Shown here one piece after another: positions 35,183 to 63,701 of a stretch of DNA of 64,000 bases; the stretch's first letter is position 1, and each line of letters opens with the position of its first letter. The position numbers and the translations under genes were made by a program. The stretch spans positions 29,800-93,799 of the forward strand of contig DATFWE010000009.1 of assembly GCA_035259575.1 (NCBI GenBank), in the 5' to 3' direction. Source of the DNA: Haliangiales bacterium. GTDB lineage: Bacteria; Myxococcota_A; Polyangia; Haliangiales; SHYZ01. The notes beneath the pieces are model-generated. The model was not told where the DNA came from. It made no database searches and worked only from the letters and a program-made list of their open reading frames with translations.

Positions 35183-36772
35183 ATGCTCGCGCCGATGTCC
35201 GCTCCGCTGCCACCTTCGGGCGGCGACTCCGACGACGAGCCCCCAGGCGATAAAACCTTCGTGGATCCAAATGTTTACGACGGGAAGTGGGACGAGAGCA
35301 CCGTGGACGAGCGGGGCGGCCGAAGGGCTGCCGAAGCGGGCGAGGCGGGATCCGCCCCGGCCCGGGTCGCGCGCCTCCGGGTGACCGGCGGGAGCGACCG
35401 GGGGCGGGAATTCGTGCTCGGGGACGCGGAGACGTCGGTCGGCCGGGGCACGACGAATGGCATCATCCTCACCGACCTCTCGGTCTCGCGGAAGCACCTC
35501 CTCGTCCTCTACGACGGCACGGAATACCGCATCAAGGACCTCGGGTCGGGGAACGGGACCGTGGTGAACGGGGAGATCCTCGAGGGCGAGGGCCCGCTCC
35601 GGGACGGGGACACGATCGACCTCGGCAAGACGACGCTGCGGTTCGCCTTTCCGCCCACCGGGGCGGAACGCCGCGGCTCGGCCGCGCCCGCCAAACCGCG
35701 CCCGCACCCGCTTTCGCCGGACGTCGCTGCGCGGCAGACGCTGCCGCTCGGGACGTCGGGCGCCTCGCCGCCGATGCGTCGGGCGACCGCGTCGTCGTCC
35801 AAGACACCGCCTCCTTCGCCGTCGGGGGGACCGGGCGCGCCGGCCGCCGCGGCGCCGGCGCCGTTCGTGCCGACGGTGCAGACGCCCGCCGTGGCGCCGC
35901 CGCGCCGGACTGCCCGCCTCCTGGCCATGTTCATGGCCGGTGTGGGCCTCCTGGCGCTGGGGTTCGGCATCCTCGCGCTGGTGGGACCACGCCGGTCGAC
36001 GCGAACCGTGGCCGTGCCGATCCCGGCCCCGGTGCCCGTTCCGGTGGCCACGGGGGCCAAGCCCGAGCCCAAGCCCGAGGCCGCCCCGCCGGCGACGCCG
36101 CCCGAGCCCGCCCCGTCGGTGACGCCGCTCGCGGAGGAGCCCAGGCCGGCCAAGCCGGCCGCCGCCGCCGTGGCGCCCCTCAAGAAGAAGGCCGCGGCGG
36201 AGACGGGGTCGGCCGAGCACCCCGCCGAGAAGACCGCCGCGGTGCAGTACCGGGACAAGCAGTTCGCCGAGGCGGCGCGCATCCTGCGCGCCGCGGCCGA
36301 CGCCGACCCCGCGAGCGCCCCGCGCCTCAACGCGATGGCGAAGGACTTCGTGGCGGTGGGCGCGGGCCTGGCGCGCGGCGACGCGGCCGCGGCGGCGAGC
36401 CCCGCCCAGTCGCTCGTCGCCTACCAGGAGGCGCTGGCGGCCGACCTCCGCGCGGGCGGATTCCACGCGCCGGGGATCCGCTCCAAGCTCGCGCGGGTCG
36501 CGCCGGCGGCGGCGGCGTCCTACCTCGGCGCGAACCGCTACGAGCAGGCGCGCGCCGCCTGCGACCTGGCGCAGAACTTCGGCGCCGGCGGGGACGAGCG
36601 CGTCGCCCGCGTGCGCAACGAGCTCGAGGCCAAGGCGCGCGAGCTGTTTCAGGCCGCACAGGAGCTGTCGCGCGACAAGCCCGACGAGGCGCGCTCGCTC
36701 TACCGGCGCATTACCCAGATCGTGCCGGAGGGGAGCCAGTGGCACGAGAAGGCGTCGAGCTCCCTGCGCTAG
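35183..36772 (+). CDS. FHA-domain membrane protein with Pro/Ala-rich linker and helical C-terminal domain
   Basis: FHA core ..VGRGTTNGIILTDLSVSRKHLLVLYDGTEYRIKDLGSGNGTVVNGE... TM segment LLAMFMAGVGLLALGFGILALV. The start could also be the ATG at 35195. Confidence 0.8.
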   Translation: MLAPMSAPLPPSGGDSDDEPPGDKTFVDPNVYDGKWDESTVDERGGRRAAEAGEAGSAPARVARLRVTGGSDRGREFVLGDAETSVGRGTTNGIILTDLSVSRKHLLVLYDGTEYRIKDLGSGNGTVVNGEILEGEGPLRDGDTIDLGKTTLRFAFPPTGAERRGSAAPAKPRPHPLSPDVAARQTLPLGTSGASPPMRRATASSSKTPPPSPSGGPGAPAAAAPAPFVPTVQTPAVAPPRRTARLLAMFMAGVGLLALGFGILALVGPRRSTRTVAVPIPAPVPVPVATGAKPEPKPEAAPPATPPEPAPSVTPLAEEPRPAKPAAAAVAPLKKKAAAETGSAEHPAEKTAAVQYRDKQFAEAARILRAAADADPASAPRLNAMAKDFVAVGAGLARGDAAAAASPAQSLVAYQEALAADLRAGGFHAPGIRSKLARVAPAAAASYLGANRYEQARAACDLAQNFGAGGDERVARVRNELEAKARELFQAAQELSRDKPDEARSLYRRITQIVPEGSQWHEKASSSLR

Positions 36773-36803
36773 CGGGGATCGCGCCGAAGGCGCGAGAACC
36801 CCG
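36773..36803. terminator. GC-rich hairpin between convergent genes (candidate bidirectional terminator)
   Basis: In cggggatcgcgccgaaggcgcgagaaccccg, the inner stem TCGCGCC/GGCGCGA pairs around GAA and the outer stem CGGGG/CCCCG closes it. A T-containing tail ctactctttcc follows. It lies immediately after the TAG at 36770-36772. Confidence 0.45.
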
Positions 36804-36820
36804 CTACTCTTTCCGGCTCT

Positions 36821-37210
36821 TCAGCGCCTTTTGGCCAGCACCCGCTCGATCGCTTTTTCCAGCTCGTCGAACTCGAACGGCTTGTCGATGTGCTCGTCGG
36901 CGCCGTAGAGCGGCGACGTCATCTCGTTCATCTTCTCGCCGATGGCGGTGAGGATGATGATGCCGATGTCCTTGGTCGCCTCGTCCTGCCGAAGCGCCCG
37001 CGCCACCTCCCAGCCGTTCTTGAGGGGCATCATCACGTCGAGGACGATGACGTTCGGCCGGCGCTGCCTCGCCTCGGCGATCGTTTTTTCGCCGTCTTGC
37101 GCCTCGGAGACCTCGTAGCCGCGTTTGGCGAGACGCAGGCTGAGCATCCCGAGGATCTCGGGGTCGTCGTCCGCCACGAGGATCTTGGCCTTGGTCGCCG
37201 CCTTCGCCAT
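36821..37210 (-). CDS. Single-domain response regulator (CheY-like receiver)
   Basis: KILVADDDPEIL.., phospho-acceptor context VIVLDVMMP, ..IIILTA.., and ..DKPFEFDEL... Confidence 0.9.
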   Translation of the reverse strand: MAKAATKAKILVADDDPEILGMLSLRLAKRGYEVSEAQDGEKTIAEARQRRPNVIVLDVMMPLKNGWEVARALRQDEATKDIGIIILTAIGEKMNEMTSPLYGADEHIDKPFEFDELEKAIERVLAKRR

Positions 37211-37276
37211 CGCTTCACGCTACGACGAACGTGGAGCAGGAATCAAGCCATCCCAAACACATGCTAAGACCAGCCA

Positions 37277-38245
37277 ATGCCTAAGGTTTGGCGCCGCCTG
37301 CTCCTCGTGGCCCTGGTGGCCGTGGCGGTGTTCGCCGGCTTCTCCATCTACGCCGACGTATCCAAGCTGGGCGATCGGCTCGCGCACCTGGCTCCCGGGG
37401 CGGTGGTCGCGGCGCTCCTCCTGGCGCTCGGCAACTACGTCATCCGGTTCTGGCGCTGGGAGCTCTACCTGCGCGCCGTCGGCGTCGAGGCGCCGAGGAA
37501 GACGAGCCTCCAGGTGTTCGTGGCGGGGTTCGCCATGTCGGTGACGCCGGGGAAGCTCGGTGAGCTCGTCAAGGCGGTGCTCCTGCGCGAGGCGGCCGGC
37601 GCGCCGGTGGAGCGGACCGCCCCCGTCGTCGTGGCCGAGCGCGTCACGGACCTGGTCGCGCTCGTCATCCTCGGCATCGTCGGCGTGGCCGCGTACGGCG
37701 TGGCCCGGTCGATGGTGGTCGCGGCGGCGGTCGTCACGGGCGCCGGCCTGGCCGTGCTGTCGTCGCGACGGCTCGCGGGCGGTGTCATCGCGCTGGTCGC
37801 GCGCATCCCGCGCGTCGGGCGCATCGCGCCGCGCCTCTACGACGCGTACCGCCACATGGGCGCGCTGGTGCGGCCGCGCCCCCTCGCGTGGGCGACGGCG
37901 CTGGGCATCGCCGCGTGGCTGTGCGAGTGCATCGGCTTCGCCGTCATCTGCCGCGGCTTTCCCGGCGCCGACGTCCCGCTCGGGCTGGCCACGCTCATCT
38001 ATGCCGCCACCACCGTCGCCGGCGCGCTGTCGTTCCTCCCCGGGGGGCTCCTCGTGACCGAGGCGTCCATGACGCTGCTCCTGGTCGAGTGGGCGCACGG
38101 CCTCGACCGGCCGGCCGCCGTCGCGGCGACGATCGTGACGCGCTTGTGCACGCTGTGGTTCGCGGTGATCCTCGGGATCGTCGCGTTCGCCGCGCTCCGC
38201 CGCGACAAGCCGGCCGCGGCGGCCGCCCTGGCGCCCGAGCGGTGA
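37277..38245 (+). CDS. UPF0104 / lysyl-phosphatidylglycerol-synthase-TM-like ('flippase-like') integral membrane protein
   Basis: About 8 TM segments. The family-like N-terminus is ..RLLLVALVAVAVFAGFSIY...LGNYVIRFWRWELYLR... First gene of the tightly spaced plus-strand operon. Confidence 0.7.
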   Translation: MPKVWRRLLLVALVAVAVFAGFSIYADVSKLGDRLAHLAPGAVVAALLLALGNYVIRFWRWELYLRAVGVEAPRKTSLQVFVAGFAMSVTPGKLGELVKAVLLREAAGAPVERTAPVVVAERVTDLVALVILGIVGVAAYGVARSMVVAAAVVTGAGLAVLSSRRLAGGVIALVARIPRVGRIAPRLYDAYRHMGALVRPRPLAWATALGIAAWLCECIGFAVICRGFPGADVPLGLATLIYAATTVAGALSFLPGGLLVTEASMTLLLVEWAHGLDRPAAVAATIVTRLCTLWFAVILGIVAFAALRRDKPAAAAALAPER

Positions 38246-38246
38246 C

Positions 38247-38666
38247 ATGACGGACGAGGAGCGTCCGCCGTTCGTCCTCCGCTGGGTCCTCCTCTTCGGG
38301 GCGGGCCTGGTGGCGACGGCGATGACGCTCATGGTGATCTTCCTCCGCCAGCCCAAACCGCCGCCGCTGGGGACGCCCGCGCTGGAGCGGCAGGGAGAGT
38401 ACCTGGTGTGCCACCCCGCGGGCCGCGGGTACCTCATCCTCGCGTCGGCCCAGGACGGCCGCGTGACGATCCACATTCCCCGGCGCGGCGCGGGCGCGAG
38501 CGCGCTCGTCGACGATCAGGCCGGCATCCCCCTCGCCGACCTGCCGCACGGGACGATCTACGCCTTCTTCAGCCTGCACCCCATCTCCGTCGGCACGGTC
38601 ATGTCGCGCCTGGCGCGCGGCGTGGAGGAAGTTCCCGAGGCCACAACCGTCGTCTTCCGCTGGTAG
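38247..38666 (+). CDS. Hypothetical membrane-anchored protein
   Basis: The ATG lies 1 nt after the upstream stop. N-terminal TM WVLLFGAGLVATAMTLMVIFL. No recognisable family. Confidence 0.5.
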   Translation: MTDEERPPFVLRWVLLFGAGLVATAMTLMVIFLRQPKPPPLGTPALERQGEYLVCHPAGRGYLILASAQDGRVTIHIPRRGAGASALVDDQAGIPLADLPHGTIYAFFSLHPISVGTVMSRLARGVEEVPEATTVVFRW

Positions 38667-38675
38667 TATTCACCC

Positions 38676-39176
38676 GTGACGCATTTCGCCTTCGCGCACG
38701 ACTTCGACGCCGATCCGGAGCGCTACTGGCGACTGTTCTTCGACGAGCCCTACAACACGGATCTCTACGCCCGGCTGAAGACGAAGGACCGCACGGTCCT
38801 CGTCCATACGGAGGACGACGCCACGATCCACTTCGAGCAGAAGGTCGTCCCCCGCCGCGATCTCCCCGGCGTCATCAAGAAGATCGTCCGCGGCGACCTC
38901 GGCTACGTCGAGACCGCGACGTACCACAAGGGCAAGAGCTACATGGACGTGAAGATCGAGCCGACGCTGTTCCGGGATCGCACCAGGGTGCGCGCCCGCT
39001 ACACCGTCACGGCGCTCGCGCCGGGGAAGGTGCGGCGGACGTTCGAGGGGGACATCCACGTGGACATCCCGCTCATTGGACGGCGCGTGGAGGCGGCGGT
39101 GCTCGAGGACGTGAAACGCAGCTATGACGTGGCCGCCGAGGTCACGAGGGAGTGGCTCGCAAATGGCGCGCGGTGA
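38676..39176 (+). CDS. SRPBCC-superfamily protein (DUF2505-like)
   Basis: 166 aa. ..DADPERYWRLFFDEPYNTDLY.. and the C-terminal ..IPLIGRRVEAAVLEDVKRSYDVAAEVTREWL resemble DUF2505/polyketide-cyclase-like lipid-binding folds. Recalled from memory, not searched. Confidence 0.55.
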   Translation: MTHFAFAHDFDADPERYWRLFFDEPYNTDLYARLKTKDRTVLVHTEDDATIHFEQKVVPRRDLPGVIKKIVRGDLGYVETATYHKGKSYMDVKIEPTLFRDRTRVRARYTVTALAPGKVRRTFEGDIHVDIPLIGRRVEAAVLEDVKRSYDVAAEVTREWLANGAR

Positions 39177-39951
39177 CGTGGAGTTCGACTTCCAGCGCTA
39201 CGTGGCGCTGCGGCGCGGGCAGGCGGAGAAGCGCGCGCGCGACGGCGCGGCCTACGCCTACCGCGGCGAGCATCGCATCCGCCGCACGCTGACGGTGGCG
39301 CGCCCGGTGGCGATCGCCATCGAGGCGACGGTGCGGCTGTGGCAGTCCAAGGCGCGCGACGAGCTGTTCGCATCGGGCGTCAAGGCCACCGGCGCCGACC
39401 ACCCGCGCGCGCACCAGCTCGTCGCGCGCGCGGCGAAGGTGCTGGGCATCCCGGCGCCGCCGACGTACGTCGCCGGCGAGGGCCGCGAGGTGCTCGCGCT
39501 CGGCACGGACGAGGAGGCCTACCTCGTCGTGCCGGCCAAGGCGCTGGACTCGTTCGACGACGCCGAGCTGTCGTTCGCGCTGGGCCACGCGCTGGGCCAC
39601 GTCCACAACGGGCAGGTCGTCTTGACGACCGCGCTCTACTATCTCAGCCACGACGCCGCGTTCTACGTGCGCTGGGTGGTGCAGCCGGCGATCCTGGCGC
39701 TGAAGGGCTGGCTGCGGCGCGCCGAGATCACCTGCGACCGCGCCGGGCTCCTCGCCAGCCCGAGCCTGGACGCGGCGACGGCCGTGCTGGACAAGCAGGG
39801 CGTGCGCGGCGGCCGCCGCGACAAGCGCCTGGCGGCGCTGCGCCTGTTCGCCGACTCCGCCTTCTTCCGCGCCCACGCCGGGACGGGCCCGGGCGGCCTC
39901 AGCGCCACCGAGCTCGACGACGAGGTGGCCAAGATCGTGAGCCTGCTATGA
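39163..39951 (+). CDS. M48-like metalloprotease homologue with a degenerate active site (HALGH in place of HExxH)
   Basis: The context ..ELSFALGHALGHVHNGQVV.. and the downstream ..AEITCDRAGLL.. resemble M48/HtpX-like peptidases. The codon at the Glu position is GCG (Ala). The ATG at 39163 overlaps the upstream gene by 14 nt. Confidence 0.65.
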   Translation: MARGDVEFDFQRYVALRRGQAEKRARDGAAYAYRGEHRIRRTLTVARPVAIAIEATVRLWQSKARDELFASGVKATGADHPRAHQLVARAAKVLGIPAPPTYVAGEGREVLALGTDEEAYLVVPAKALDSFDDAELSFALGHALGHVHNGQVVLTTALYYLSHDAAFYVRWVVQPAILALKGWLRRAEITCDRAGLLASPSLDAATAVLDKQGVRGGRRDKRLAALRLFADSAFFRAHAGTGPGGLSATELDDEVAKIVSLL

Positions 39952-41696
39952 CCTTTCTCCCCCAGCACCAGGCGGTGAAGCAGCGCCTCCTCGAGGCCCT
40001 GCGCGGTCTCGCCGATCTCGCCGGCGCCGCCGGCATGAAGACGCTCCGCGCCGACCTCGTCGAGACGCGCGTGCCCAAGCTCGAGGAGGAGCGCTTCCAC
40101 CTCGTCGTCCTCGGCGAGTTCAACCACGGCAAGTCCACGTTCGTGAACGCGCTCCTCGGCGCGGACGTCCTGCCTACCGGCATCACCCCCACGACCGCCA
40201 CGATCAACCACGTGGTGTGGGCGGACCGGCCCCGCGCCAAGGCGGTCTTGACCGGGGGCAAGGAGATCGCCGTCGATCCCAAGGCGCTCGCCGACTGGGT
40301 CACCGTCGACGGGAGCCACGCCGCCGAGACGCACTACGTCGAGGTGGGCTGGCCGGCCGCGTTCCTCGAGGACAAGCTCACGCTCGTCGACACGCCCGGG
40401 GTGAACGACCTCAACGAGCAGCGCGCCGAGATCACCTACGAGTACGTGCCGCGCGCCGACGCCGTGCTGTTCCTCCTCGACGCGGGGCAGGCGCTCAAGG
40501 AGTCCGAGCGCGCGTTCCTCGCCTCGCGCCTGCTCGAGCGCTCGCGCGACCGGATGATCTTCGTCGTGTGCAAGGCGGACCTGCTCACGCCCGAAGAGCT
40601 CGCCGACGTGGTGCGCTACGTCGAGGACAACCTCGGCCGCCTGGTCGACGATCCGCCCGTGTTCGCCGTATCCGCCCGCAAGCACCTCGCCGGCGACAGG
40701 GCGGCCGGGCGCATGGAGCCGCTGCTCCAGCACCTCGCCCGCTCGCTCACCGAGGACCGCGGGCGCGTCCTCCTCGACAACGCCGCCGCCGAGGGGCTCC
40801 GCGCCGCCGGGTACCTCAAGCAGAACCTCGGCGTCAAGCGCAGCGCGTTCGAGCTCAGCCTCGCCGAGCTCACCGAGCGGGTCGAGAAGGTCCGCTCGCA
40901 CCTCTCGGCCACGAAGGACAATCTCGAGCGCCTGCACGACAAGATCCGTTCCGAGGGCGACGCGATCAAGGCGCGCGTGCGCCTCGACGTCGAACAGTTC
41001 GCCGAACGCTTCCAGCGCGCCATCATCGGCGAGATCGACAAGGCCGACGCCCACGACGTGAAGCGTTACCTGCCGCTCTACATCCAGGACAAGTTCAAGG
41101 AGTGGGCCGAGCTCGAGGGCGAGGCCTGCGCCGAGCTGCTCGAGCGGCTGGCGGAGGAGGCGATCACCGTCACCAACGAGAACGCGCGCGCGGCCACGGC
41201 CGCGGTCGCCGAGCGGCTCGGGCCCACCGACGCGCGATTCCAGGTCGACGTCGATACGTTCCGCTACGACGTCTCGGTCTACGCCGTCGGCGCGCTGGGC
41301 ACCACCGTGTTCCTGTTCGTGAACACGCTGGTCGGGGGCGTCCTCACGCTCGCCGCGCCCATCCTGGCGATCGTGCTCCACTCGCGCGCCGCGGCCGAGA
41401 TCAAGGACCAGGCGATGGAGAAGGCGCCCGAGGCGATCCGCCAGGCGGCGGCGCTGATGCGCCCGCACTTCGAGCGGCTGGTGAACGAGTTCGTGACGCG
41501 CCTGGGCGACTTCGTGACCGCGGCGGGCGACAAGCTCTACCGCGGCATCACCGAGGTGCTCGACCAGGCGATCGCCGAGCGCCGCGCCCGCGGCGACGCG
41601 GTGGCGCCGCTGGCCGCCGAGGCCGAGGAGCAGATCGCGCGCCTGTCCGCCCTCGAGGAGGGGATCACCCAGCTCCGCGCCGATCTGTGGAAGTGA
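39948..41696 (+). CDS. Bacterial dynamin-like GTPase (BDLP) with hydrophobic paddle
   Basis: G1 GEFNHGKSTFVNALLG, G2/G3 ..TPTTA.. and LVDTPGVND, G4 CKADL. The stalk is helical. A hydrophobic membrane-insertion segment is YAVGALGTTVFLFVNTLVGGVLTLAAPILAIVL. The ATG overlaps the upstream TGA (ATGA). Confidence 0.85.
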   Translation: MTFLPQHQAVKQRLLEALRGLADLAGAAGMKTLRADLVETRVPKLEEERFHLVVLGEFNHGKSTFVNALLGADVLPTGITPTTATINHVVWADRPRAKAVLTGGKEIAVDPKALADWVTVDGSHAAETHYVEVGWPAAFLEDKLTLVDTPGVNDLNEQRAEITYEYVPRADAVLFLLDAGQALKESERAFLASRLLERSRDRMIFVVCKADLLTPEELADVVRYVEDNLGRLVDDPPVFAVSARKHLAGDRAAGRMEPLLQHLARSLTEDRGRVLLDNAAAEGLRAAGYLKQNLGVKRSAFELSLAELTERVEKVRSHLSATKDNLERLHDKIRSEGDAIKARVRLDVEQFAERFQRAIIGEIDKADAHDVKRYLPLYIQDKFKEWAELEGEACAELLERLAEEAITVTNENARAATAAVAERLGPTDARFQVDVDTFRYDVSVYAVGALGTTVFLFVNTLVGGVLTLAAPILAIVLHSRAAAEIKDQAMEKAPEAIRQAAALMRPHFERLVNEFVTRLGDFVTAAGDKLYRGITEVLDQAIAERRARGDAVAPLAAEAEEQIARLSALEEGITQLRADLWK

Positions 41697-41700
41697 AGGC

Positions 41701-44385
41701 ATGGGCTTCTGGGACCGCCTGTCGCGCCGTCTCGACGAGCTCAGCGAGGAGCTCCTCCCCGACGCCATCCGCGACGACGTGGGCGGCGCGCGGGAGATGG
41801 TCGCGCGCGGGGACTACGGCGCCGCCATCGCCACGCTCGAGCGCGCCCTGGCCCACAAGCCGGACCACGCCACCGCGCGATACCTCCTTGGCGTCGCGCG
41901 CCTGCGCACGGGCGACACCGTCGGGGCGATCGACGCGCTGGCGCGCGCGCGGGAGCTGCGCCCCGGATTCACCGAGGCGCTGATCGCGCTGGGGGAGGCG
42001 TCGCTGGCCAAGGGGGAGCCCGACGCGGCCATCCCGTTCCTGCGCGAGGCGCTCGCGGCCGGCGGCGCGGCCGAGGAGCTCGCCGACGCGTACCTCGCTC
42101 TCGGGCGCGCGTACCTGGCGAGCGGCGCGCGCGCCAAGGGCCTGCGCGAGCTGCGCAAGGCGCTCGCCGAGGACCCGGCCGACGAGGAGGCGGCGGCGAC
42201 GCTCGCCGAGGCGCTCCTCGACGACGACAAGCTCGACCCCGAGGAGGCGCGCGCGTTCTTGAAGGGCACGTCGCCGCCGGTGCTCGCCGCGCTCGGGCGG
42301 CTCGAGCTGCGCGCCGGCCGCTGGGAGGCGGCGGAGAAGGCGCTCGCGCGCGCGCTCGAGGGTATGTTGCCGCCGGAGGTGCGCCTGGCCGCCCTGGTCG
42401 GCCTCGGCGACGTGCTGGCGCGGCGGGGCGATCGGCGCGGCGCGCACGATGCCCTGCTCCGCGCGCTCGCGCTCGCCCCGCAGGACGCGTCGATCCACCT
42501 CCGGCTGGCGCGCGTCCTCGCCGCGGCGGCCAGCCCCGAGGCCGCGCTCGACGCCTACGAGCGCGCCGCAGCGCTGGGCGCGGACCCCGCCGTCCTGTCC
42601 GAGGCGTTCGACGTCGCGATGGCCGCGGGGCTCGCCGCGCGCGCCGCGGGCTACCTCGAGGGGGGGCTCGGCCCGCGCGAGCGCGCGCTCGCCGAGGCGC
42701 AGGCGGAGCTCGACGCCGACCCCGCCCGGGCGATCGCCGCCGCGCGCGCGCTCCTCGAAGATAACGCCGGCTACGCGCCCGCGGAGAAGCTCCTGCGCTC
42801 AGCGCTCGGCCGCGAGCTGGGCGACGGGCCGGCGGGCGACCCCTACGCCCTCGCCCAGCGCGTCCACCGCGTCGCCGCCCGCCGCTTCCCCGAGCTCGCC
42901 GGAGAGGCGCTGGCGATCGTCGAGTCGTACGACCGGCCGCTCCTCGTCACGGTGATGGGGGAGTTCTCGAGCGGCAAGAGCACGTTCGTGAACGCGTTCC
43001 TCGGCGCCGACGTCGCGCCCGTGGGCGTGACGCCGACCACGGCGACGATCAACGTCGTCAAGTACGGGCGCGAGCCCGGCGCGCGCATCGTCTACCAGGA
43101 CGACCGCACCCGCGACGTCCCCTGGGAGGAGGTGCCAGGCGTCCTCGGCGCGCTCGATGCCGACGAGGCGCGCCGCATCCGCTGGGTGGAGGTGCTCTAC
43201 CCCCTCGAGACGCTCGCCCGCGTCAGCATCGTGGACACCCCCGGGCTGAACTCGATCCTCCCCGAGCACGAGGCGACGGCGCGCCGGTTCATCGCCGAGG
43301 CCGACGCGATCGTCTGGCTGTTCACCGTCGGGCAGCCGGGCAAGGCGACCGAGCGCGAGGCGCTCGAGCGCATCCGCGCCGACGGCCGGCGCGTGCTCGG
43401 CGTCGTGAACAAGATCGATCAGGTGACGCCGGAGGAGGCCGAGGCGGTGACGGCGCATCTCCGCGCCGAGCTCGGCGAGCTCCTCGACGACCTGGCGCCG
43501 GTGTCGGCCCGGCGGGCGCTGGCGGCGCGCGAGGCCGGCGACGCCGCGGCGCTGGCCGCGGCCGGCTGGCCCCGCCTCGACGCGGCGCTCGAGGAGCGGT
43601 TCTTTCACCAGGCGCGCACCATCAAGCGCGACATCGCGCGCCGGCGCCTGGCGGGCGTCATCGAGCGCGCCCGCGGCGACGCGCGCGCCCGCGCCGACTC
43701 CGCCGGGGCGCGCGCCGCCGCGTTGGCCCGCGCGGCCAACGGCGCCCGCGCCGACGCGGCGCTCTTCGCCCGCGTCACCGTCCCCGAGGAGCGCCAGCGC
43801 CTGGCCGAGCGGGTCGCCGAGACGTACCGGGGCGCGGCCCGCGAGGTGCTCGAGCTGGTGCGGCCGCGCAAGTCGCCGTTCGGCTCTCACCGCGCGACCG
43901 GCGCGGACCGCGACTACCTCATCGGCTACCTCGACCGCGGCCTGGCCGAGGCGCTCGAGCCGATGCGCGAGCGCACCGTCGCCGATCTACACCAGGCCGG
44001 CGAGGCCGCCGCCGCCGCCGCCCCCGAGGCCGCCGCCGCGCTCCGCGCCCACGTGGAGGACGCGATCGCGCTGGTGGAGGCGCGCGCCTTCGACCGGGCG
44101 CGCGCCTACGTCCGCGGGTACCTGCGCGGCGGACGGATCGACGATTTCTTCGGCCGGGTCCTGCCCAAGGTCGAGCTCGTCACAGACAACGTGTACCATG
44201 CGCTGGTGAGAGACGCGCCCGATCTGGAGCTGGAGCTGGGAGCGCCGCTGGGGCGGCAGGGCGAGGCGGCGCTGCGCGCGCTCGCGACGCGCCTCGACGC
44301 GCTGGCGGCCGCGGCCGCGGCGGCGGCGCTGGAGGCCCGCGTCGTCGCCGACGCGGCCGACGCCTGGCACGAGGAGCTCGCGTGA
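41701..44385 (+). CDS. TPR-domain / dynamin-like GTPase fusion protein
   Basis: The N-terminal ~390 aa hold TPR-like repeats (..GDYGAAIATLERALAHKPDHATARYLLGVA..). The dynamin G domain follows with GEFSSGKSTFVNAFLG, IVDTPGLNS and NKID. The C-terminal stalk is helical with no hydrophobic paddle. Confidence 0.85.
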   Translation: MGFWDRLSRRLDELSEELLPDAIRDDVGGAREMVARGDYGAAIATLERALAHKPDHATARYLLGVARLRTGDTVGAIDALARARELRPGFTEALIALGEASLAKGEPDAAIPFLREALAAGGAAEELADAYLALGRAYLASGARAKGLRELRKALAEDPADEEAAATLAEALLDDDKLDPEEARAFLKGTSPPVLAALGRLELRAGRWEAAEKALARALEGMLPPEVRLAALVGLGDVLARRGDRRGAHDALLRALALAPQDASIHLRLARVLAAAASPEAALDAYERAAALGADPAVLSEAFDVAMAAGLAARAAGYLEGGLGPRERALAEAQAELDADPARAIAAARALLEDNAGYAPAEKLLRSALGRELGDGPAGDPYALAQRVHRVAARRFPELAGEALAIVESYDRPLLVTVMGEFSSGKSTFVNAFLGADVAPVGVTPTTATINVVKYGREPGARIVYQDDRTRDVPWEEVPGVLGALDADEARRIRWVEVLYPLETLARVSIVDTPGLNSILPEHEATARRFIAEADAIVWLFTVGQPGKATEREALERIRADGRRVLGVVNKIDQVTPEEAEAVTAHLRAELGELLDDLAPVSARRALAAREAGDAAALAAAGWPRLDAALEERFFHQARTIKRDIARRRLAGVIERARGDARARADSAGARAAALARAANGARADAALFARVTVPEERQRLAERVAETYRGAAREVLELVRPRKSPFGSHRATGADRDYLIGYLDRGLAEALEPMRERTVADLHQAGEAAAAAAPEAAAALRAHVEDAIALVEARAFDRARAYVRGYLRGGRIDDFFGRVLPKVELVTDNVYHALVRDAPDLELELGAPLGRQGEAALRALATRLDALAAAAAAAALEARVVADAADAWHEELA

Positions 44386-45083
44386 GGCCGCCGCGCGAGA
44401 TCATGACGCTCGGGCTCGACGAGGCCGGCCGCGGCCCGGTGCTCGGTCCCCTCGTCATGGCCGGGGTGTGCGTGCGCACGCGCGCGGCCGCGTCGATGAC
44501 CCGCGCGGGCGTCCTCGACTCCAAGGAGTTCGGCACCGGCGACGAGGCGCACGCGCGCCGCTCCGAGCTCGCCGCGCGCATCCGCGAGCTCGCCGCGTCG
44601 ATCGTCGTGCGGGTGATCGACGTGGCCGAGATCGACCGGCGCGTGCGCCTGCACGAGCTCAACGTGCTCGAGCGCGAGCACGCCGCGGAGATCATCGAGC
44701 GATCGAGCCCGGCCAAGCGCATCGTCGCCGACGGGGAGCGCATGTTCGCCGCGCTCAAGGTGCGCTTCCCCCACCTCGAGGCGCGCGACCGCGGCGAGTC
44801 CTGCCACGTCGCGGTGGCCGCGGCGTCCATCATCGCCAAGGTGCGCCGCGACGAGCTGTTCCACTGCATCCGCCGCCGTTACGAGCCGGAGTTCGGCCCC
44901 ATCGGCGGCGGCGGCTACGAGAACGCGCGCACGCACGCGTTCCTGCGCGCCTACGTGTGCCGCTACGGCCGCCTCCCGCCCGAGGCGCGCCGCTCGTGGA
45001 GCTGGGCGAACGTCGACTACCTGCCGCGCGGCTACAGGCCTCTCGCCGACCTGCCGCCGGTGGGGCAGCTGTCCCTGGTGTAG
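44382..45083 (+). CDS. rnhB: Ribonuclease HII
   Basis: ..LGLDEAGRGPVLGPLVMAGV.., ..DSK.., ..IVADG.., ..VAAASIIAKVRRD... The GTG start overlaps the upstream TGA (GTGA). Confidence 0.8.
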   Translation: MRPPREIMTLGLDEAGRGPVLGPLVMAGVCVRTRAAASMTRAGVLDSKEFGTGDEAHARRSELAARIRELAASIVVRVIDVAEIDRRVRLHELNVLEREHAAEIIERSSPAKRIVADGERMFAALKVRFPHLEARDRGESCHVAVAAASIIAKVRRDELFHCIRRRYEPEFGPIGGGGYENARTHAFLRAYVCRYGRLPPEARRSWSWANVDYLPRGYRPLADLPPVGQLSLV

Positions 45084-45093
45084 ACTTCCGCGC

Positions 45094-45951
45094 ATGGGCA
45101 ACGCCACCGTCGCGTTTTTCGGCGCGGGGATGATGGGGGCCGGCTTCGTCAAGGCGCTGCGGCGCCGCGGCGTGGACGTCGCGGTGTGGAACCGCACCAT
45201 CGCCAAGGCGCAACCCCTCGCCGCGGTCGGGGCGCGCGTCGCCGCGGACCCGGCGGCGGCCGCCGCCGGCGCGGCGCGCGCCCACCTGTCCCTCTCCGAC
45301 GACGCGGCGGTCGATGCGCTCCTCGAGCGCATCGTCGATGCGCTGCCCCCGGAGGCGCCGATCATCGACCACACCACCGTGTCCCCGGCGGGCGCCGCGG
45401 CGCGGGCGGCGACGCTCGCCCGCCTCGGCCGCCGCTTCCTCCACGCGCCGGTGTTCATGGGGCCGGCGCAGGCCGAGGGCGCGCAGGGGCTGATGCTGTG
45501 TTCGGGTCCGTCGGATCTCTACCAGTCGCTAGCCACGGAGCTATGGGCCATGACCGGCGAGGTGTGGTACATGGGCGAGGAGCCAGGGCGCGCCGCCGCC
45601 TTCAAGTTGTTCGGCAATGCGATGATCGTGACCATCGCGTCCGGGCTGGCCGACGTGTACGCCATGGCGCGGGCGCAGGGCATCACGCCCGAGGACGCGC
45701 ACGGCCTGTTCGCCAAGCTCCCCGTCGGCAAGCAGATCGACTTCCGCGGCGCCAAGATGGCGCGCGGCGATTTCGCCGCGTCGTTCGAGCTGGCCATGGC
45801 GCGCAAGGACGTCCGCCTCATGCTCGACGCGGCCGGCGGCTCGACGCTGGCCGTCCTTCCCGCGATCGCGGCGCGCATCGACGCGCTCCTCGCGGCCGGG
45901 CACGCGCGGCAGGATCTGGGCGTGCTCGCGGTGGACGCGGTGCGGCCCTAG
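45094..45951 (+). CDS. NAD(P)-dependent oxidoreductase, 3-hydroxyisobutyrate/6-phosphogluconate dehydrogenase-like
   Basis: N-terminal Rossmann motif VAFFGAGMMGAGFVKAL, followed by ..AAAFKLFGNAMI... The C-terminal domain is helical. Confidence 0.85.
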   Translation: MGNATVAFFGAGMMGAGFVKALRRRGVDVAVWNRTIAKAQPLAAVGARVAADPAAAAAGAARAHLSLSDDAAVDALLERIVDALPPEAPIIDHTTVSPAGAAARAATLARLGRRFLHAPVFMGPAQAEGAQGLMLCSGPSDLYQSLATELWAMTGEVWYMGEEPGRAAAFKLFGNAMIVTIASGLADVYAMARAQGITPEDAHGLFAKLPVGKQIDFRGAKMARGDFAASFELAMARKDVRLMLDAAGGSTLAVLPAIAARIDALLAAGHARQDLGVLAVDAVRP

Positions 45952-47675
45952 TACCCCTCCGCCCCGCCCCCGCGCCGCGGGTCGGGCGAGGCGGTCCACA
46001 GCTCGCCGCGCCGGACGATCGTCGGCGCGACGCCGACCGACCCGCCGACCTTGGTCGTGTGCCCCATGCGCTCGAGCGCGCGCACCGTGTCCGGCGGGAG
46101 CCCGTTCTCCTCCGTGAACAGGACGTCGGGCAGGTGCTGGTGGTGGACGCGCGGCGTCGCGACCGCCGTGTACGCGTCCATGCCGAAGTCGAGCGCGTTG
46201 GACATCACCTGAAACACGCCGGTGATGATGCGCGAGCCGCCGCGCGCGCCGGTCACCAGCACGACGCGCCCGTCGGGGCCGACGACGATCGTGGGCGACA
46301 TCGACGACAGCGGGCGCTTCCCCGGGCCGACGGCGTTCGCCTCCCCTTGCACCAAGCCGAAGATGTTGGGCGTGCCCGGCTTCACCGCGAAATCATCCAT
46401 CTCGTCGTTGAGGAGGAACCCCGCGCCCGCGACCGTGACCCCCGAGCCGTACAGACGGTTGAGGGTGTAGGTGAGCGCGGCCACGTTCCCCTTCTCGTCG
46501 ACGACGGCGAAGTGCGTCGTGTCGGTGCCCTCGCGAAAGCCCGGGCCGGTCCGGTCCGACGGTGTGGCCTTGTTGAGATCGATCGTCTCGCGCCGCCGGG
46601 CGGCGTACGCGTCGGACAGGATGGTGTGGTTCCACGGCACGAAGTCGGGATCGCCGAGGAGCGCGTTGCGATCGGCGTAGGCGCGGCGCATCGCCTCCGC
46701 GACGAGGTGGATGTGCTCGACGGAGTGCCACCCCAGCGCCGCAAGATCGTACCCCTCGAGGATGTTGCCGATCTCGGCGAGCGCGATGCCTCCCGACGAT
46801 GGCGGCGCCATGGAGATGACGTGGTTCTTGCGGTAGTCGAACTCGATCGGCTCGCGCCACTTCGCCGAGTACGCCGCGAGGTCCGCGCGCGTGATGAGCC
46901 CGCCGCCCCGCGCCATCTCCGCGGCGACGAGATCGGCCGTCTCGCCCCGGTAGAAGCCGTCGGGCCCGCGCTCGGCGATGCGCCGCAGCGTGCGCCCGAG
47001 GTCGGGGTTCACGAACGTCGCCCCCACCTGCGGCGGCGCGTCGTGCGGCCAGTACAGCGCCGCCGACGCGGCGTAGCGCTGCATGTCCTTGCCCTCGTCG
47101 GCGATCGACGCGTGGAACCGTTCGGTGACGGGGAACCCCTCCTCCGCGATGCGGATCGCCGGCGCGAGGAGCTCCGCCCACGGCTTGGTGCCGAGCCTGC
47201 GGTGAAGCTCCCACAGGCCGGCGACCGTGCCCGGCACGCCCGCGCTGCGCGGCCCGTACACGGAGTCCTTGGTCGGCGTCCCGTCGGGACCGAGGTACAT
47301 GTCGCGCGTCGCCGCGGCCGGCGCGGTCTCGCGGAAATCGAGTGCGTAGGTCTTGCCGTCGCCGGTGCGGACGACGGCGAATCCGCCGCCGCCGAGGTTC
47401 CCCGCCACGGGATAGGTGACGGCGAGCGCGAACGCGGTGGCCGTCGCGGCGTCGACCGCGTTGCCGCCGGTGCGCAGGACCTCGATGCCCACGTGCGTGG
47501 CGAGCGGCTCCTCGGTCACGATGATCGCGTGGGCGCCGGTGGCGACCGCTCCCGTGACCGGGAAGCGCCAGCCTGCCGGAACCGTCGGGACGGCCGTCGC
47601 GGCAGGCGTCGCGCTGGGCGTCGGGCGCTGGCAAACCGCAAGGGCGAGGAGGACGAGGGGCGCGAACCGGCGCAT
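45948..47675 (-). CDS. ggt: Gamma-glutamyltransferase
   Basis: The start MRRFAPLVLLALAVC is at 47675. ..GGNAVDAA.., ..GGGGF.., the autoprocessing/nucleophile context GTDTTHFAVVDEKGN, and ..MDDF... The upstream 86 codons of the track ORF are junk. Confidence 0.9.
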   Translation of the reverse strand: MRRFAPLVLLALAVCQRPTPSATPAATAVPTVPAGWRFPVTGAVATGAHAIIVTEEPLATHVGIEVLRTGGNAVDAATATAFALAVTYPVAGNLGGGGFAVVRTGDGKTYALDFRETAPAAATRDMYLGPDGTPTKDSVYGPRSAGVPGTVAGLWELHRRLGTKPWAELLAPAIRIAEEGFPVTERFHASIADEGKDMQRYAASAALYWPHDAPPQVGATFVNPDLGRTLRRIAERGPDGFYRGETADLVAAEMARGGGLITRADLAAYSAKWREPIEFDYRKNHVISMAPPSSGGIALAEIGNILEGYDLAALGWHSVEHIHLVAEAMRRAYADRNALLGDPDFVPWNHTILSDAYAARRRETIDLNKATPSDRTGPGFREGTDTTHFAVVDEKGNVAALTYTLNRLYGSGVTVAGAGFLLNDEMDDFAVKPGTPNIFGLVQGEANAVGPGKRPLSSMSPTIVVGPDGRVVLVTGARGGSRIITGVFQVMSNALDFGMDAYTAVATPRVHHQHLPDVLFTEENGLPPDTVRALERMGHTTKVGGSVGVAPTIVRRGELWTASPDPRRGGGAEGY

Positions 47676-47716
47676 CGCGCCCAAACATAGCACCCTGTTA
47701 GCGTTGCGCCGGCGCG

Positions 47717-49207
47717 TCAGTGCGCGGCCTTGTTCTCGTTCTTCTCCGCGGCGTCGACGTTGTCGTTGAGACGCGGCGCGGACTGGGCCGGCGCCGGTGC
47801 CTTCTTGACCGCCTTCGCGCGCTGCTGCTGGTCCATGCATCCGCGGAACGCCGGGTCGCCCGCGACGTTCTTCTGGAAGTACGTGGGATCGACGCGCGAG
47901 ATCTTGTCCCGCAGCGCCAGCGCCTCGGGGCACGCGCCCGCGCTCGCCTGCTTGCGCGCCTGCTGGTGAAGCTCGGCGGACTGCGACGGCGGCGACGGCT
48001 TCGCCGGCGCCTGCTTCTGCTCGTATTGCTTCGGCGCCTGGTTGGCCGCGGCCTGCGTTTTCTGGTTGGCCGGCGCCTCGGGCTCAGCGTTCGCCGTCTG
48101 CAGCGCCTTGGGCGGTGGCGGCGCCGGCTCGGGCGCGGGCGCCGCCGGCGCCGCGGCCGCGCGCCGATCGCCCGTGGGCGCGGCGCCACCGACGGTACCG
48201 GCCTTGCGCTGCTCCGTCTGGGCGAGGTCGTTCGCGGGCGCTTGCTGCGCCCCGCGCGACTCGAGGCCCTTCTGCCCCTCCTGCGTCGGCGCCGGACGGT
48301 CCGCCGGCGCGCGCGTCGCGAGCTTCCCTTCTTTGGTCGCGTCGGGCACGGTGATCTCGCCGGTCACGGTCTGGGCGCGTTCCAGATCGTCGGCGTGTTT
48401 CGCGTCCCCGCCCTTGCCGCCGGCGGTGTCCTTGTTGGCGAGATAGCCGTCCTCCGTCTTGTACCGCGACGGCGCCACGGTCTTGTCCGCTGCTGCCTCG
48501 CGGAGCGACTTCTCCTCGCGCGGCGTGCTGGTGCGCCCGGTCCGATCGGGCCGGAGCTTGGCGTCCCGGGTATCGGCTAGACCGTCGATGTCGGTAGACG
48601 CCCGGAACTTCGTCGCGACGGTCTTCGACTTCGCCACCGGCGCCGGAGCGACGGCCGGCGTGGCCCCCGGCTTGGCCTCCTCCGCCTCCGGCGGCGCCGC
48701 GGCCACGACGGGTTGATCGAAGCGGCCAGCCTCCTTCGCCTTGTCCGACTCTCCGGCGCGCGCGCCCTCGTCGGCCGGGCGGACCGGCTCCGCCTTCGAC
48801 GCGGTCGTGACCCCGGCCGGGGCCATGCCCTTGTCGCGCCTGAGCGTGAGCACGCTCGCCAGCCCGGCCACGAGCAGCACCGACGCCGCCGCCCCGACCC
48901 AGGCCGGGTGGCGCGCCAGCGGCGCGAAAAACTCCCTCAGGCGGGCGAGGATCCCGACGCGCTCCTCCGCGACCTTGGGCGCGCGCCGCGCGGCCTCGTG
49001 CAGCAGCCGCGCGGAGACCGCCGGCGACGGCTCAAGCTGGGGGATCGCCCGCAGCGCCTGCCGGGTGCGCGCCAGGCTCGCCAGCTCGGCCTCGCAGCGA
49101 GCGCAGTCGTGCACGTGCTCCTCGAAGGCCTTGGCCTGGGGCTCCCCGAGCTCCTGGTAGAGAAAATCCACCATCAGCTCGTCTATGTCGCGGCACTGCA
49201 TCATCAC
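47717..49207 (-). CDS. Anti-sigma factor (zf-HC2) with one TM and a long low-complexity periplasmic region
   Basis: The N-terminal zf-HC2 pattern is ..HVHDCARCEAEL... TM segment WVGAAASVLLVAGLASVL. The start overlaps the sigma-factor stop (GTGATGATG). The C-terminus has Cys pairs (ACPEA..FRGC). Confidence 0.75.
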   Translation of the reverse strand: MMMQCRDIDELMVDFLYQELGEPQAKAFEEHVHDCARCEAELASLARTRQALRAIPQLEPSPAVSARLLHEAARRAPKVAEERVGILARLREFFAPLARHPAWVGAAASVLLVAGLASVLTLRRDKGMAPAGVTTASKAEPVRPADEGARAGESDKAKEAGRFDQPVVAAAPPEAEEAKPGATPAVAPAPVAKSKTVATKFRASTDIDGLADTRDAKLRPDRTGRTSTPREEKSLREAAADKTVAPSRYKTEDGYLANKDTAGGKGGDAKHADDLERAQTVTGEITVPDATKEGKLATRAPADRPAPTQEGQKGLESRGAQQAPANDLAQTEQRKAGTVGGAAPTGDRRAAAAPAAPAPEPAPPPPKALQTANAEPEAPANQKTQAAANQAPKQYEQKQAPAKPSPPSQSAELHQQARKQASAGACPEALALRDKISRVDPTYFQKNVAGDPAFRGCMDQQQRAKAVKKAPAPAQSAPRLNDNVDAAEKNENKAAH

Positions 49208-54806: not shown

Positions 54807-55095
54807 GGCGGAGGAATTTTAGCACCCGCGCGCGGGGCCTATAATCAATTCCGTGCAGGTCGACGTCGGCGAGCGCTCGGAGTCCCTCGACACTTGCCGT
54901 CGAGCATCCGGCCTGTGCCTGACGTTCGCGTCGCGCGACACGACACGCGACGCCATGCGCACGACGAGCTCGATCGTCCCGCGCAGGCGCATTCGATCTC
55001 TCGCTCGCGCCGGCTCACGCAGCGGGCTCGGGGCGCCTCCGCCGAACATCTGCCGCCCACCCGGAGTAGAATTGCATGTCATGTAGTGTCACTTC

Positions 55096-55629
55096 ATGAA
55101 CGCACAGGCGGGCAATAAGTACGTCCAACTCCTCCTGTTCTGGAACCGCCGCATCAACCTCACCGCGATCCGGAATGAGGTGGGCATCCGTTCGACGCAC
55201 TTCGGCGATTCCCTCGCCGCGGCGGCGCATGTCCCGTCCGGAGCAGCGACCCTCGTCGACGTTGGGAGCGGGGCTGGATTTCCGGGTGCGGTCATCGCCC
55301 TGTCCAAACCCGAGCTCCGCGTGACGCTCGTCGAGCCCAACCACAAGAAGGCCGCGTTCCTCGAAGCGCTGCGGCGCGAGGTGCCCATCCCGAACATCCA
55401 GATCATCGCCCACCGCGTCGACCGCCTCGCCGAACGCTTCGACGTGGCCACATCCCGCGCCACGTTTCCTCTCCCAAAGTGGCTGTCCCTCGGCGCCCGG
55501 CTCGTTCGACCAGGCGGCCTCGTCCTCGGCTTCGAGGGCGCACAAGCCGCCGAGCTCCCCCCCGGAGCCCAGCGCATCCCCTACGCCCCCGGCCGCTCGA
55601 TCATCCTCTACGTTCCACGTGAAACGTGA
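55096..55629 (+). CDS. rsmG: 16S rRNA (guanine527-N7)-methyltransferase
   Basis: ..LLLFWNRRINLTAIR.., SAM motif LVDVGSGAGFPG, and ..LVEPNHKKAAFL... At 177 aa the N-terminus is somewhat short, bounded by an in-frame TAG at 55084. Confidence 0.85.
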   Translation: MNAQAGNKYVQLLLFWNRRINLTAIRNEVGIRSTHFGDSLAAAAHVPSGAATLVDVGSGAGFPGAVIALSKPELRVTLVEPNHKKAAFLEALRREVPIPNIQIIAHRVDRLAERFDVATSRATFPLPKWLSLGARLVRPGGLVLGFEGAQAAELPPGAQRIPYAPGRSIILYVPRET

Positions 55630-55660
55630 CGCTCCCGCGCTCGCGTTCCACGTGAAACGT
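55611..55660 (+). promoter_or_regulatory. Direct duplication of a 17-mer containing a near-palindrome (candidate operator in front of bioF)
   Basis: CGTTCCACGTGAAACGT occurs at 55611-55627 (over the rsmG stop) and again at 55644-55660 (just before or overlapping the bioF start). Each copy contains GTTCCACGTGAAAC, a 14-bp near-palindrome around CACGTG. Copy spacing is 33 bp. Confidence 0.35.
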
Positions 55661-58127: not shown

Positions 58128-58780
58128 GGACGTACTTCGTCACGGGCACCGATACCGGTGTCGGAAAGACCTTTGTTTCCGCGGGGATACTGGCCTCGCT
58201 GCGTCGGCGCGGGGTCGCCGTCGCGGCGCTCAAGCCGGTCGAGACGGGCTGCGATCCCGACCCCGCCGACGGTGCTCTCCTCGGCGCCGCCGCCGGGCGC
58301 GCGCTCGTCCCGTACACGTTCCGCCCGCCGATCGCCCCGGCCGTGGCCGCTCGCCTCGAGGGACGTCCGGTATCGTTCGAGCGCATCCGCGCCGCGCTCG
58401 TCTCGCTCGACGCCGATTTCTGCCTCGTCGAGGGCGCCGGCGGCCTGCTCGTCCCCTACACCGACGATCTCCTCGCCGCCGACCTTGTCGCCTTCCTCGG
58501 GCTGCCGCTCCTCGTCGTCGCGCGGGCGTCGCTCGGCACCATCAACCACACGCTCTTGACGATCGCCGAGGCGCGCCGCCGGGGCCTCCCGATCGCCGGC
58601 GTGATCCTGGACCGCGTCGTCGCCCAGGCCGGCCCCGACGAGCCGCACAACGTCGGCGAAATCGAGCGGCACGGGGGCGTCCGCGTCCTCGGCACCGTTC
58701 CGCACGTCGCCGGCGCGCGCGACCCCGCGGCGCTCGCCGACGCCGTCGAGCGGGCGTTCGATCCTATGTCGTTGCGATGA
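58124..58780 (+). CDS. bioD: Dethiobiotin synthase
   Basis: [16 protein letters not shown].., ..[10 protein letters not shown]... The GTG overlaps the bioA TGA (GTGA). Confidence 0.9.
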
Positions 58781-61092: not shown

Positions 61093-61106
61093 GACGCCTG
61101 ACTATA

Positions 61107-62936: not shown

Positions 62937-62938
62937 GC

Positions 62939-63411: not shown

Positions 63412-63519
63412 GAGAAAAAGCTCACCCGTTACCCTGCGCCCGAGGCGCTGGACCGAAAGGTACTCCGAGCGGGTGCGCAGTCTGACTCGTTTGGGAAAGG
63501 CTTCCGACGTCGGCCTGAC

Positions 63520-63678: not shown

Positions 63679-63701
63679 GGCATTCTCCGTCGGGACGCGT
63701 A

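Follow-up and report, generated by a model that had tools for sequence, protein, structure and literature searches.

Bacterial dynamin-like proteins (DLPs) are widespread, but little is known about what they associate with and how they are regulated. Here we analyse a co-oriented block of genes in a stretch of 64,000 nucleotides (nt) from contig DATFWE010000009.1 of a Haliangiales bacterium (hereafter the window, to which all positions refer), in which the genes for two DLPs directly follow a gene for a protein related to the peptidases of family M48. Comparison with related loci indicates that the conserved unit is this M48-like gene together with a DLP gene, usually plus a second DLP gene, which in the window corresponds to the three genes g4, g5 and g6. 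The names g1 to g7 denote the seven genes of an initial annotation of this DNA, and d1 denotes an eighth gene added here. The features are as follows.

37277-38245, plus strand: g1, flippase-like polytopic membrane protein (LPG_synthase_TM/UPF0104), 322 amino acids (aa); PF03706, TIGR00374
38247-38666, plus strand: g2, orphan with one N-terminal transmembrane (TM) segment, 139 aa; GC content at third codon positions (GC3) 0.94, hydropathy
38676-39176, plus strand: g3, DUF2505 protein, 166 aa; PF10698
39163-39951, plus strand: g4, predicted soluble M48-like pseudo-protease, 262 aa; PF01435
39586-39600, plus strand: HALGH, the degenerate zinc-site motif of g4; alignment of 202 family members
39948-41696, plus strand: g5, DLP with a hydrophobic hairpin, 582 aa; Dynamin_N, hydropathy
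41701-44385, plus strand: g6, TPR array and dynamin-like GTPase without a paddle, 894 aa; TPR families, Dynamin_N
44382-45083, plus strand: g7, RNase HII, 233 aa; PF01351
45094-45951, plus strand: d1, NAD-binding dehydrogenase, 285 aa; NAD_binding_2
36821-37210, minus strand: receiver-only response regulator, divergent from g1; Response_reg, 83.8 bits

Results

Organization of the gene block

The initial annotation had described g1 to g7 as a tightly coupled operon built around two DLPs. Its gene coordinates, spacers and overlaps were all confirmed: the seven plus-strand open reading frames have GC3 values of 0.92-0.98, which are typical of coding sequence in this window of about 72% GC, and the junctions from g1 to g7 are, in order, 1 nt, 9 nt, -14 nt, ATGA, 4 nt and GTGA. 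The start of g4 at 39163 matches the N-termini of homologues and the gene call of public assemblies. Its domain calls (UPF0104, DUF2505, M48, DLP, TPR-DLP and RNase HII) were upheld by hidden Markov model search, the M48 match being weak and partial, and the degenerate active site of g4, the hydrophobic paddle of g5, the membrane anchor of g2 and the tandem pair of bacterial DLPs (BDLPs) that it had reported are all present, as detailed below. The end of the block does not lie at 45083, however, because d1 continues in the same direction 10 nt past the RNase HII gene. The co-directional run extends to 45951, with spacers that are all at most 10 nt or overlaps, and terminates only at a convergent gamma-glutamyltranspeptidase (GGT) gene (45948-47933, minus strand), which overlaps the end of d1 by 4 nt. 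Such tight spacing in a high-GC operon is insufficient as proof that all members form one system.

A promoter and terminator scan of positions 36500-46500 returned no promoter-like and two terminator-like sites, which is the chance level and uninformative for a myxobacterium of 72% GC. The spacer between the divergent response regulator gene and g1 (37211-37276), which is the presumed location of divergent promoters, measures 66 nt, and no sigma-70-like site was detected there in the scan; because the spacer is so short, the promoters of both genes must fall within or overlap it.

The M48-like gene is followed by a DLP gene in related Myxococcota

A search with g4 returned 845 relatives, and 442 genomes, counted as one per GTDB species, encode one; the closest match among the GTDB representatives is 48% identical, the window's own genome not being among those returned. 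Gene contexts were compared by tblastn of the window proteins against the loci of the best 80 of these 442 genomes, together with locus L001. These 80 loci all come from Kofleriaceae, Haliangiales or Polyangia metagenome-assembled genomes (MAGs), and the denominators given below vary by feature. A DLP gene stands directly after the M48-like gene in all of 71 loci (71/71), with approximate gaps that mostly range from -1 to +16 nt, and a second DLP gene lies downstream in 48 of 50 loci, its TPR part being alignable in 32.

The surroundings of this core differ between lineages. The locus L083, whose M48-like protein is 88% identical to g4, has a layout identical to that of the window, g2 and g3 included. 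In a second Polyangia clade (L047, L048, L050, L058, L064, L065, L067, L080 and L081), the operon consists of M48, DLP and TPR-DLP genes only and is flanked by a divergent gene for a TadA-like deaminase and by a convergent Fpg gene at the place of the RNase HII gene; both g1 and RNase HII are absent from this clade. Beyond the order, L088 has the arrangement FHA-M48-DLP-TPR-DLP-RNase HII, without g1.

An additional gene was observed in a Kofleriaceae subclade (L014, L056, L059, L060, L066, L073, L075, L076 and L078), in which a co-oriented gene for a protein of about 335 aa lies between the DLP and TPR-DLP genes. The inserted protein (for example L060, 12809-13831, plus strand) matches no Pfam family; its N-terminus resembles a lipobox, and it contains the conserved motif GTPENPVP. 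Judged by these features it is lipoprotein-like, and it could be exported and serve the module as a partner specific to this lineage.

The pairing recurs across phyla and in natural fusions

An exhaustive profile search yielded 337 representatives at E <= 1e-30, and cluster names place further members in Chloroflexota, Armatimonadota and Sandaracinaceae. Outside the order, the Sorangium locus (L092) reads HflX (minus strand)-APH-M48-DLP. The cyanobacterium Waterburya (L085/L086) carries DLP-M48-DLP on a contig that bears Mob_Pre mobilisation and DUF3854 genes, and a Pirellulales MAG (L093) has DLP-M48-DLP-sigma factor with a divergent kinase-DLP-DLP arm, giving four DLPs in total; M48-DLP pairs were also found on two unassigned contigs. 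A metagenome scan anchored on distant members gave 80 loci with GC contents of 24-74%. Among the 62 of these with room for a downstream gene, a DLP lies directly downstream of the M48-like gene in 56 under a strict rule and in 60 when overlapping starts are counted, and the two misses have flanks of just about 700 nt.

The two proteins are also joined naturally. The 906-aa protein P0135 is an M48-Dynamin fusion, three further fusions from other samples are 52-54% identical to it, and the fusion locus shares the HflX-APH synteny with Sorangium. The possibility that P0135 is a frameshift artefact was rejected, as the junction is in frame and three other fusions are known. Because the adjacency recurs across phyla, because natural fusions exist and because the operon is found in its minimal form amid unrelated flanks, we read the M48-DLP pairing as probably functional.

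These observations bear directly on a further possibility, that the DLP pair acts in cell division or sporulation and that the M48-like gene is an unrelated neighbour kept in place by operon inertia. The tandem DLPs DynA and DynB of Streptomyces stabilise FtsZ rings and many Myxococcota sporulate, which lends this view a precedent. Yet the neighbourhood contains no division genes, and the M48-DLP adjacency persists across phyla despite differing gene order and is fused in four proteins, so operon inertia is inadequate as an explanation; we consider this account very improbable.

A candidate rule that the M48-like gene always precedes the paddle-bearing DLP gene was rejected: in the Pirellulales MAG and in Waterburya, the paddle-type DLP lies upstream and the downstream DLP has no hairpin.

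The DLP-linked family has a recognizable boundary. M48 relatives without the family's N-terminal stretch of about 65 residues are not adjacent to DLPs, nor are distant representatives with extra domains such as a zinc ribbon, TPR or other extensions (P0254 and P0213); the latter therefore mark the boundary of the DLP-linked family and not an extension of it. When PLSDB plasmids were searched with the DLP-linked M48 protein P0273, nine matches were obtained, all of them partial and without the N-terminal region, and no DLP was present in the two contexts inspected (Thermus and Rhodococcus). The plasmid pTthSNM3-3c of Thermus thermophilus (L174, 30536-31459) encodes a soluble M48 protein of this kind, without the DLP-linked N-terminal region, next to an HNH endonuclease gene; a Swt1-family HEPN gene lies about 2 kb upstream, so that the context is defence-like and contains no DLP.

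Several other genes accompany the module outside the Haliangiales. In Polyangiales-type loci (Sorangium, L092:9937-10665, and 11 metagenome loci), a gene for a protein of about 242 aa with the P-loop-like motif YYGPALSGKTTNL comes after the M48-DLP pair and is itself often followed by a histidine kinase gene, and HflX and APH-family kinase genes lie upstream; the P-loop protein, for which no Pfam family was found, may be a small GTPase, as its motif suggests. The Waterburya module is preceded by a Lipase_3 gene and followed by lasso-peptide-like genes (PqqD, transglutaminase-core and Asn synthase) and a third DLP gene. Extra DLP pairs and Ser/Thr kinases accompany the versions outside Myxococcota (L093 and L089); L089 encodes three DLPs and a kinase that weakly matches a NACHT domain, and genes for two zinc-ribbon proteins lie just upstream of its M48-like gene.

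The main rival explanation holds that the cluster is an anti-phage or conflict module of the LeoA/LeoBC 'Dynamins' kind, in which the two DLPs would serve to detect or withstand what phages do to the membrane, with the M48-like protein as effector or regulator. A two-gene DLP operon protects Bacillus from jumbo phages, and both GTPase sites are required (Millman et al. 2022). In line with this precedent, g5 matches the PADLOC model of LeoA (PDLC03839) with 92 bits over nearly its full length and g6 that of LeoBC (PDLC03841) with 44 bits, both being models without curated thresholds. The extra DLPs, Ser/Thr kinases, weak-NACHT kinase and plasmid or mobilisation genes met outside Myxococcota, and the HEPN and HNH genes beside related M48 proteins on Thermus plasmids, also fit a role in conflict. 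However, the window and the 80 related genomes share vertically inherited housekeeping flanks (HPPK, FAA hydrolase, FHA protein, response regulator, RNase HII, Fpg and GGT) in place of a defence island, no further PADLOC match occurs within the cluster, an M48 component is not part of the Dynamins system as described, and the PLSDB search with P0273 brought up no M48 protein linked to a DLP. On balance, we regard an anti-phage role as unlikely, while treating it as the foremost competitor of the reading developed below.

g4 is a predicted pseudo-protease in a largely intact family

The M48-like protein g4 matches PF01435 (Peptidase_M48) with 25.1 bits against a gathering threshold of 20.3, and covers only positions 5-98 of the 186 in the profile; its relatives score 80-104 bits. 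NCBIfam holds no dedicated model for it, and the HtpX models stay far under their cut-offs (27 versus 341). At residues 142-146 it reads HALGH, so that the catalytic Glu of HExxH is replaced by Ala and both His are kept, and the third zinc ligand, a Glu, is kept in RAEITCD (residues 186-192), its codon lying at nt 39724-39726. About 36 residues, including FRSHPYLPKR with the C-terminal HPxxxxR motif, are moreover deleted in g4 and its clade relative to homologues. Hydropathy analysis detected no hydrophobic segment in g4, and the family shares a specific, conserved N-terminal region of about 65 residues, which includes YA[FY]xx[DE].

In the alignment of 202 family members, HExxH is intact in 183 (91%), as in the HECGH of the presumably catalytic Sorangium orthologue, and the Glu-Asp of the third-ligand motif (E..D of AEITCD) is present in 199. 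The 19 exceptions comprise nine kinds of motif, namely HAxxH, HTxxH and HVxxH in the clade to which the window belongs and NExxH, RExxH, HQxxH, GQxxH, HExxQ and RQxxK in other lineages. The presence of nine distinct degenerate motifs suggests repeated, independent loss of catalysis. From these comparisons, g4 appears to be an M48 homologue that is not a competent peptidase, that is, a pseudo-protease in the window, and this state would represent local degeneration within a family that mostly keeps HExxH.

The AlphaFold2 (AF2) model of g4 has a pLDDT of 80.5, and its top Foldseek matches in the PDB all belong to M48 or M56, with weak E-values of 0.02-0.4 (3CQB, 3C37, 2YPT, 8EXQ and 6SAR); the best structural matches include the HtpX domain 3CQB, the M48 peptidase 3C37, ZMPSTE24, BlaR1 and BepA, again with weak statistics. 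The conserved N-terminal segment of the M48-like protein is predicted with low confidence, which would be in keeping with a segment that acquires its fold on binding to a partner.

g5 and g6 are encoded as a tandem pair with one hydrophobic hairpin

Both GTPases carry a complete set of G motifs. In g5, Dynamin_N matches residues 52-209 with 101 bits and the motifs are GEFNHGKS (G1), TPTT (G2), DTPG (G3) and CKAD (G4); in g6, TPR families cover residues of about 30-300 and Dynamin_N matches residues 416-572 with 91 bits, the motifs being GEFSSGKS (G1), TPTT (G2), DTPG (G3) and NKID (G4). The hydrophobic hairpin of g5 spans residues 444-483 (nt 41277-41396; KD19 maximum 2.06). Hydropathy gave no hydrophobic segment for g6 (KD19 maximum 1.48), and because it has no paddle or hairpin, we assign it to the soluble partner type.

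The closest solved relatives of g5 in a phmmer search of the PDB are Campylobacter jejuni DLP1/2 (5OWV), Nostoc BDLP (2J68) and IniA (6J72), and the G domain of g6 is closest to 5OWV_C; the G domains of g5 and g6 also show sequence kinship to mitofusins. An AF2 model (pLDDT 82.9, pTM 0.62) represents the fusion P0135, whose DLP part is related to g5; the fusion is 37% identical to g5 in alignment A2. By Foldseek, this model matches 2J68/2J69 over about 674 columns with an E-value of 2e-22 and IniA 6J72 with 2e-16, as well as 5OWV, in agreement with helical neck and trunk bundles beside the G domain, and g5 itself aligns to PADLOC LeoA over residues 134-565. The two genes of the window encode a tandem BDLP pair in which only g5 bears a hydrophobic hairpin.

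Accessory and passenger genes

The remaining genes of the block vary in their distribution. The g1 protein matches PF03706 over its full length with 170 bits (profile positions 2-302 of 302) and the flippase-like model TIGR00374 with 84 bits, and has about 6-8 hydrophobic segments by hydropathy. It lacks an aminoacyl-phosphatidylglycerol synthase domain, since it is 322 aa long and scores 28 bits against the bifunctional MprF model NF033480, whose cut-off is 600; it is thus classified, from its sequence, as a stand-alone UPF0104-type protein and not as MprF. The gene lies directly upstream of the M48-like gene in 55 of 71 Haliangiales-type loci and appears to be an order-level accessory of the cluster, for which a function shared with the DLPs is only possible.

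The orphan g2 has a TM segment at residues 8-34 by hydropathy and no Pfam family. A search of 5.8 billion proteins yielded seven homologues with identities of 64-100%, of which the fully identical one is annotated 'Haliangiales bacterium', and tblastn found none in the 81 related loci; g2 therefore has the profile of a genus-level orphan and a probable lineage-specific insertion. The g3 protein matches PF10698 (DUF2505) with 95.5 bits. Its gene was found in 4 of 74 loci, lying between g1 and the M48-like gene in L002, L012, L017 and L068 as it does in the close relative L083, and on this distribution it is best described as a sporadic accessory. A link between the presence of g3 and the loss of HExxH was considered and rejected, as L002, L012 and L017 carry g3 together with an intact HExxH.

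The g7 protein matches PF01351 with 96.8 bits (cut-off 25.8) and TIGR00729 with 105.4 bits, under the equivalog cut-off of 123.3. Its gene lies downstream in 33 of 43 Haliangiales-type loci, with syntenic flanks, and it is probably a housekeeping passenger. The dehydrogenase d1 (NAD_binding_2, 95.8 bits; GC3 0.95) is of the 3-hydroxyisobutyrate/6-phosphogluconate dehydrogenase type, and tblastn found no counterpart in the 81 related loci. A divergent response regulator gene is present upstream in 53 of 61 related loci, and the flanking genes for HPPK, FAA hydrolase and the FHA protein are syntenic as well. Because the flanks are syntenic, the conservation of g1 and RNase HII within the order is inseparable from vertical synteny.

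The initial annotation had interpreted its seven genes as a candidate system for membrane remodelling or surveillance with a shared function. On this view, which could be extended to all eight genes, the flippase-like protein, the TM-anchored protein, the lipid-pocket DUF2505 protein, the pseudo-protease and the two DLPs would work together in lipid and membrane surveillance. It is favoured by the spacers of at most 10 nt or overlaps across 37277-45951, by the same layout in L083, by the frequent position of g1 upstream of the M48-like gene and by the recurrence of g3 between g1 and the M48-like gene in four loci that are more distant. By contrast, the distributions of g2 (0/81), g3 (4/74) and d1 (0/81) argue against membership, g1 is absent not only from the second Polyangia clade but also from the Sorangium, Waterburya and Pirellulales versions, and the conservation of RNase HII follows the synteny of the whole region. 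Little speaks for including g2, g3, RNase HII or the dehydrogenase, and the reading as a whole seems improbable. When gene-neighbourhood conservation is taken as the measure, the M48-DLP(-DLP) core is kept across phyla, g1 is conserved at the level of the order only, and the seven-gene unit is not supported.

Apart from the block, the last 10 kb or so of the window (54000-64000) has a clearly negative GC skew (-0.07 to -0.13), and GC content falls to 0.66 at 54-56 kb.

Discussion

We propose that a heterotypic BDLP pair acting on membranes has, in the M48-like protein, a physical partner or regulator dedicated to it, and we assign this reading a probability of about 0.55. In the window, the module would comprise g4, g5 and g6, around which g1 to g3 appear to have gathered as lineage-specific accessories and RNase HII and the dehydrogenase as housekeeping passengers. 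The evidence is comparative. The coupling of BDLPs to an M48-like protein, noted for the window by the initial annotation, is conserved in all 71 loci, and no description of an M48-DLP pairing was found in full-text searches of the literature on bacterial dynamins, which did not cover subscription journals; an M48-family partner of a BDLP operon thus appears to be previously undescribed in the literature searched.

The following mechanism can be envisaged. Through its hairpin, g5 would be anchored at the cytoplasmic face of the inner membrane, and g6 would pair with it in the manner of C. jejuni DLP1/DLP2 or IniA/IniC, with its TPR platform of about 300-400 residues recruiting partners. Translational coupling at the ATGA overlap would supply the M48-like protein in stoichiometric amounts, and it would bind the DLP directly, as the adjacency and the fusions suggest. 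Judging from the motif, most relatives probably have an M48-like protein that is active as a zinc protease; by analogy with OMA1 and OPA1, it would process the DLP or a DLP-bound client and thereby control assembly or membrane attachment. Because the catalytic Glu is replaced by Ala and a segment of about 36 residues is gone, g4 of the window would be left with non-catalytic roles, as a subunit that binds, caps or regulates. The module as a whole would probably serve GTP-driven membrane tethering, fusion or repair in envelope stress, and g1 may tune lipid distribution in those lineages that carry it.

Several points weigh against this proposal. Binding between the M48-like protein and the DLP is deduced from adjacency and fusions, and the AF2 model of the fusion reaches a pTM of 0.62. 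As g4 is catalytically dead, the proteolytic mechanism is inapplicable to the window, and a role in membrane repair is extrapolated from other BDLPs. Gene order varies, from M48-DLP-DLP in Myxococcota to DLP-M48-DLP in Pirellulales and Waterburya, and in Sorangium no second DLP is adjacent. Since the downstream DLP is hairpin-less outside Myxococcota, the partner DLP of the M48-like protein may differ by phylum. Finally, we infer co-transcription of the block from spacing alone.

A more ambitious proposal is that the DLP-linked M48 clade is a bacterial counterpart of the OMA1-OPA1 logic: the M48 protein would bind a fusion-type dynamin, intact forms would cleave the dynamin or its clients and so switch assembly states, and in several lineages, including that of the window, the protein would have become a regulatory pseudo-enzyme. 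We put this forward tentatively, as an analogy that is more likely to fail than to hold. If true, bacterial dynamin machines in which a protease or pseudo-protease is an obligatory subunit would make up a new class that spans phyla. The M48-family partner adjoins a DLP in essentially every locus examined, in Myxococcota, Cyanobacteria, Planctomycetota and diverse metagenome contigs. Its fusion to a DLP in four proteins and the repeated loss of its catalytic residues yield a concrete hypothesis on the control of these GTPases. The pairing echoes that of OMA1 and OPA1, the active and dead M48 variants provide a natural series for separating catalytic from scaffolding roles, and cultured hosts for tests exist, for example Sorangium cellulosum.

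Comparison with known systems places the module between several described ones. OMA1 belongs to family M48. In mitochondria, this metalloprotease cleaves the dynamin-like OPA1 (PMC6056715). The two cases are alike in that an M48-family protein is tied to a membrane-anchored GTPase of the dynamin superfamily, the tie being here a near-universal adjacency with fusions; they differ in that OMA1 is membrane-embedded, whereas g4 is predicted to be soluble and lacks the catalytic Glu, and we draw an analogy and claim no homology. With HtpX and other M48 peptidases, g4 shares Pfam and NCBIfam matches, structural neighbours that score weakly, the two His and the third-ligand Glu, but it has no TM helices, carries HALGH in place of HExxH, lacks the C-terminal HP...R motif and has its own N-terminal region of about 65 residues.

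Among DLP systems, the 'Dynamins' anti-phage system (Millman et al. 2022) is likewise a tandem DLP operon and its PADLOC models LeoA and LeoBC match g5 and g6; however, the scores are modest, the cluster of the window lies in housekeeping synteny and the described system has no M48-like third gene. The BDLP of Nostoc punctiforme (2J68/2J69) and mycobacterial IniA (6J72) share the G domain, the helical neck and trunk and the hydrophobic paddle, although this fold match is that of the model of a related fusion, iniBAC includes IniB and no M48 protein, and no protease partner has been described for BDLP. The C. jejuni pair DLP1/DLP2 (5OWV/5OXF) is also encoded by two adjacent, co-oriented DLP genes and gives the best solved matches for g5 (5OWV_A/C) and for the G domain of g6 (5OWV_C). 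That pair differs from the module described here in having no TPR array and no described M48-like partner, and the similarity extends over no more than the G domain and some of the stalk; in both, one of the partners is expected to be the membrane binder, with which the other would pair.

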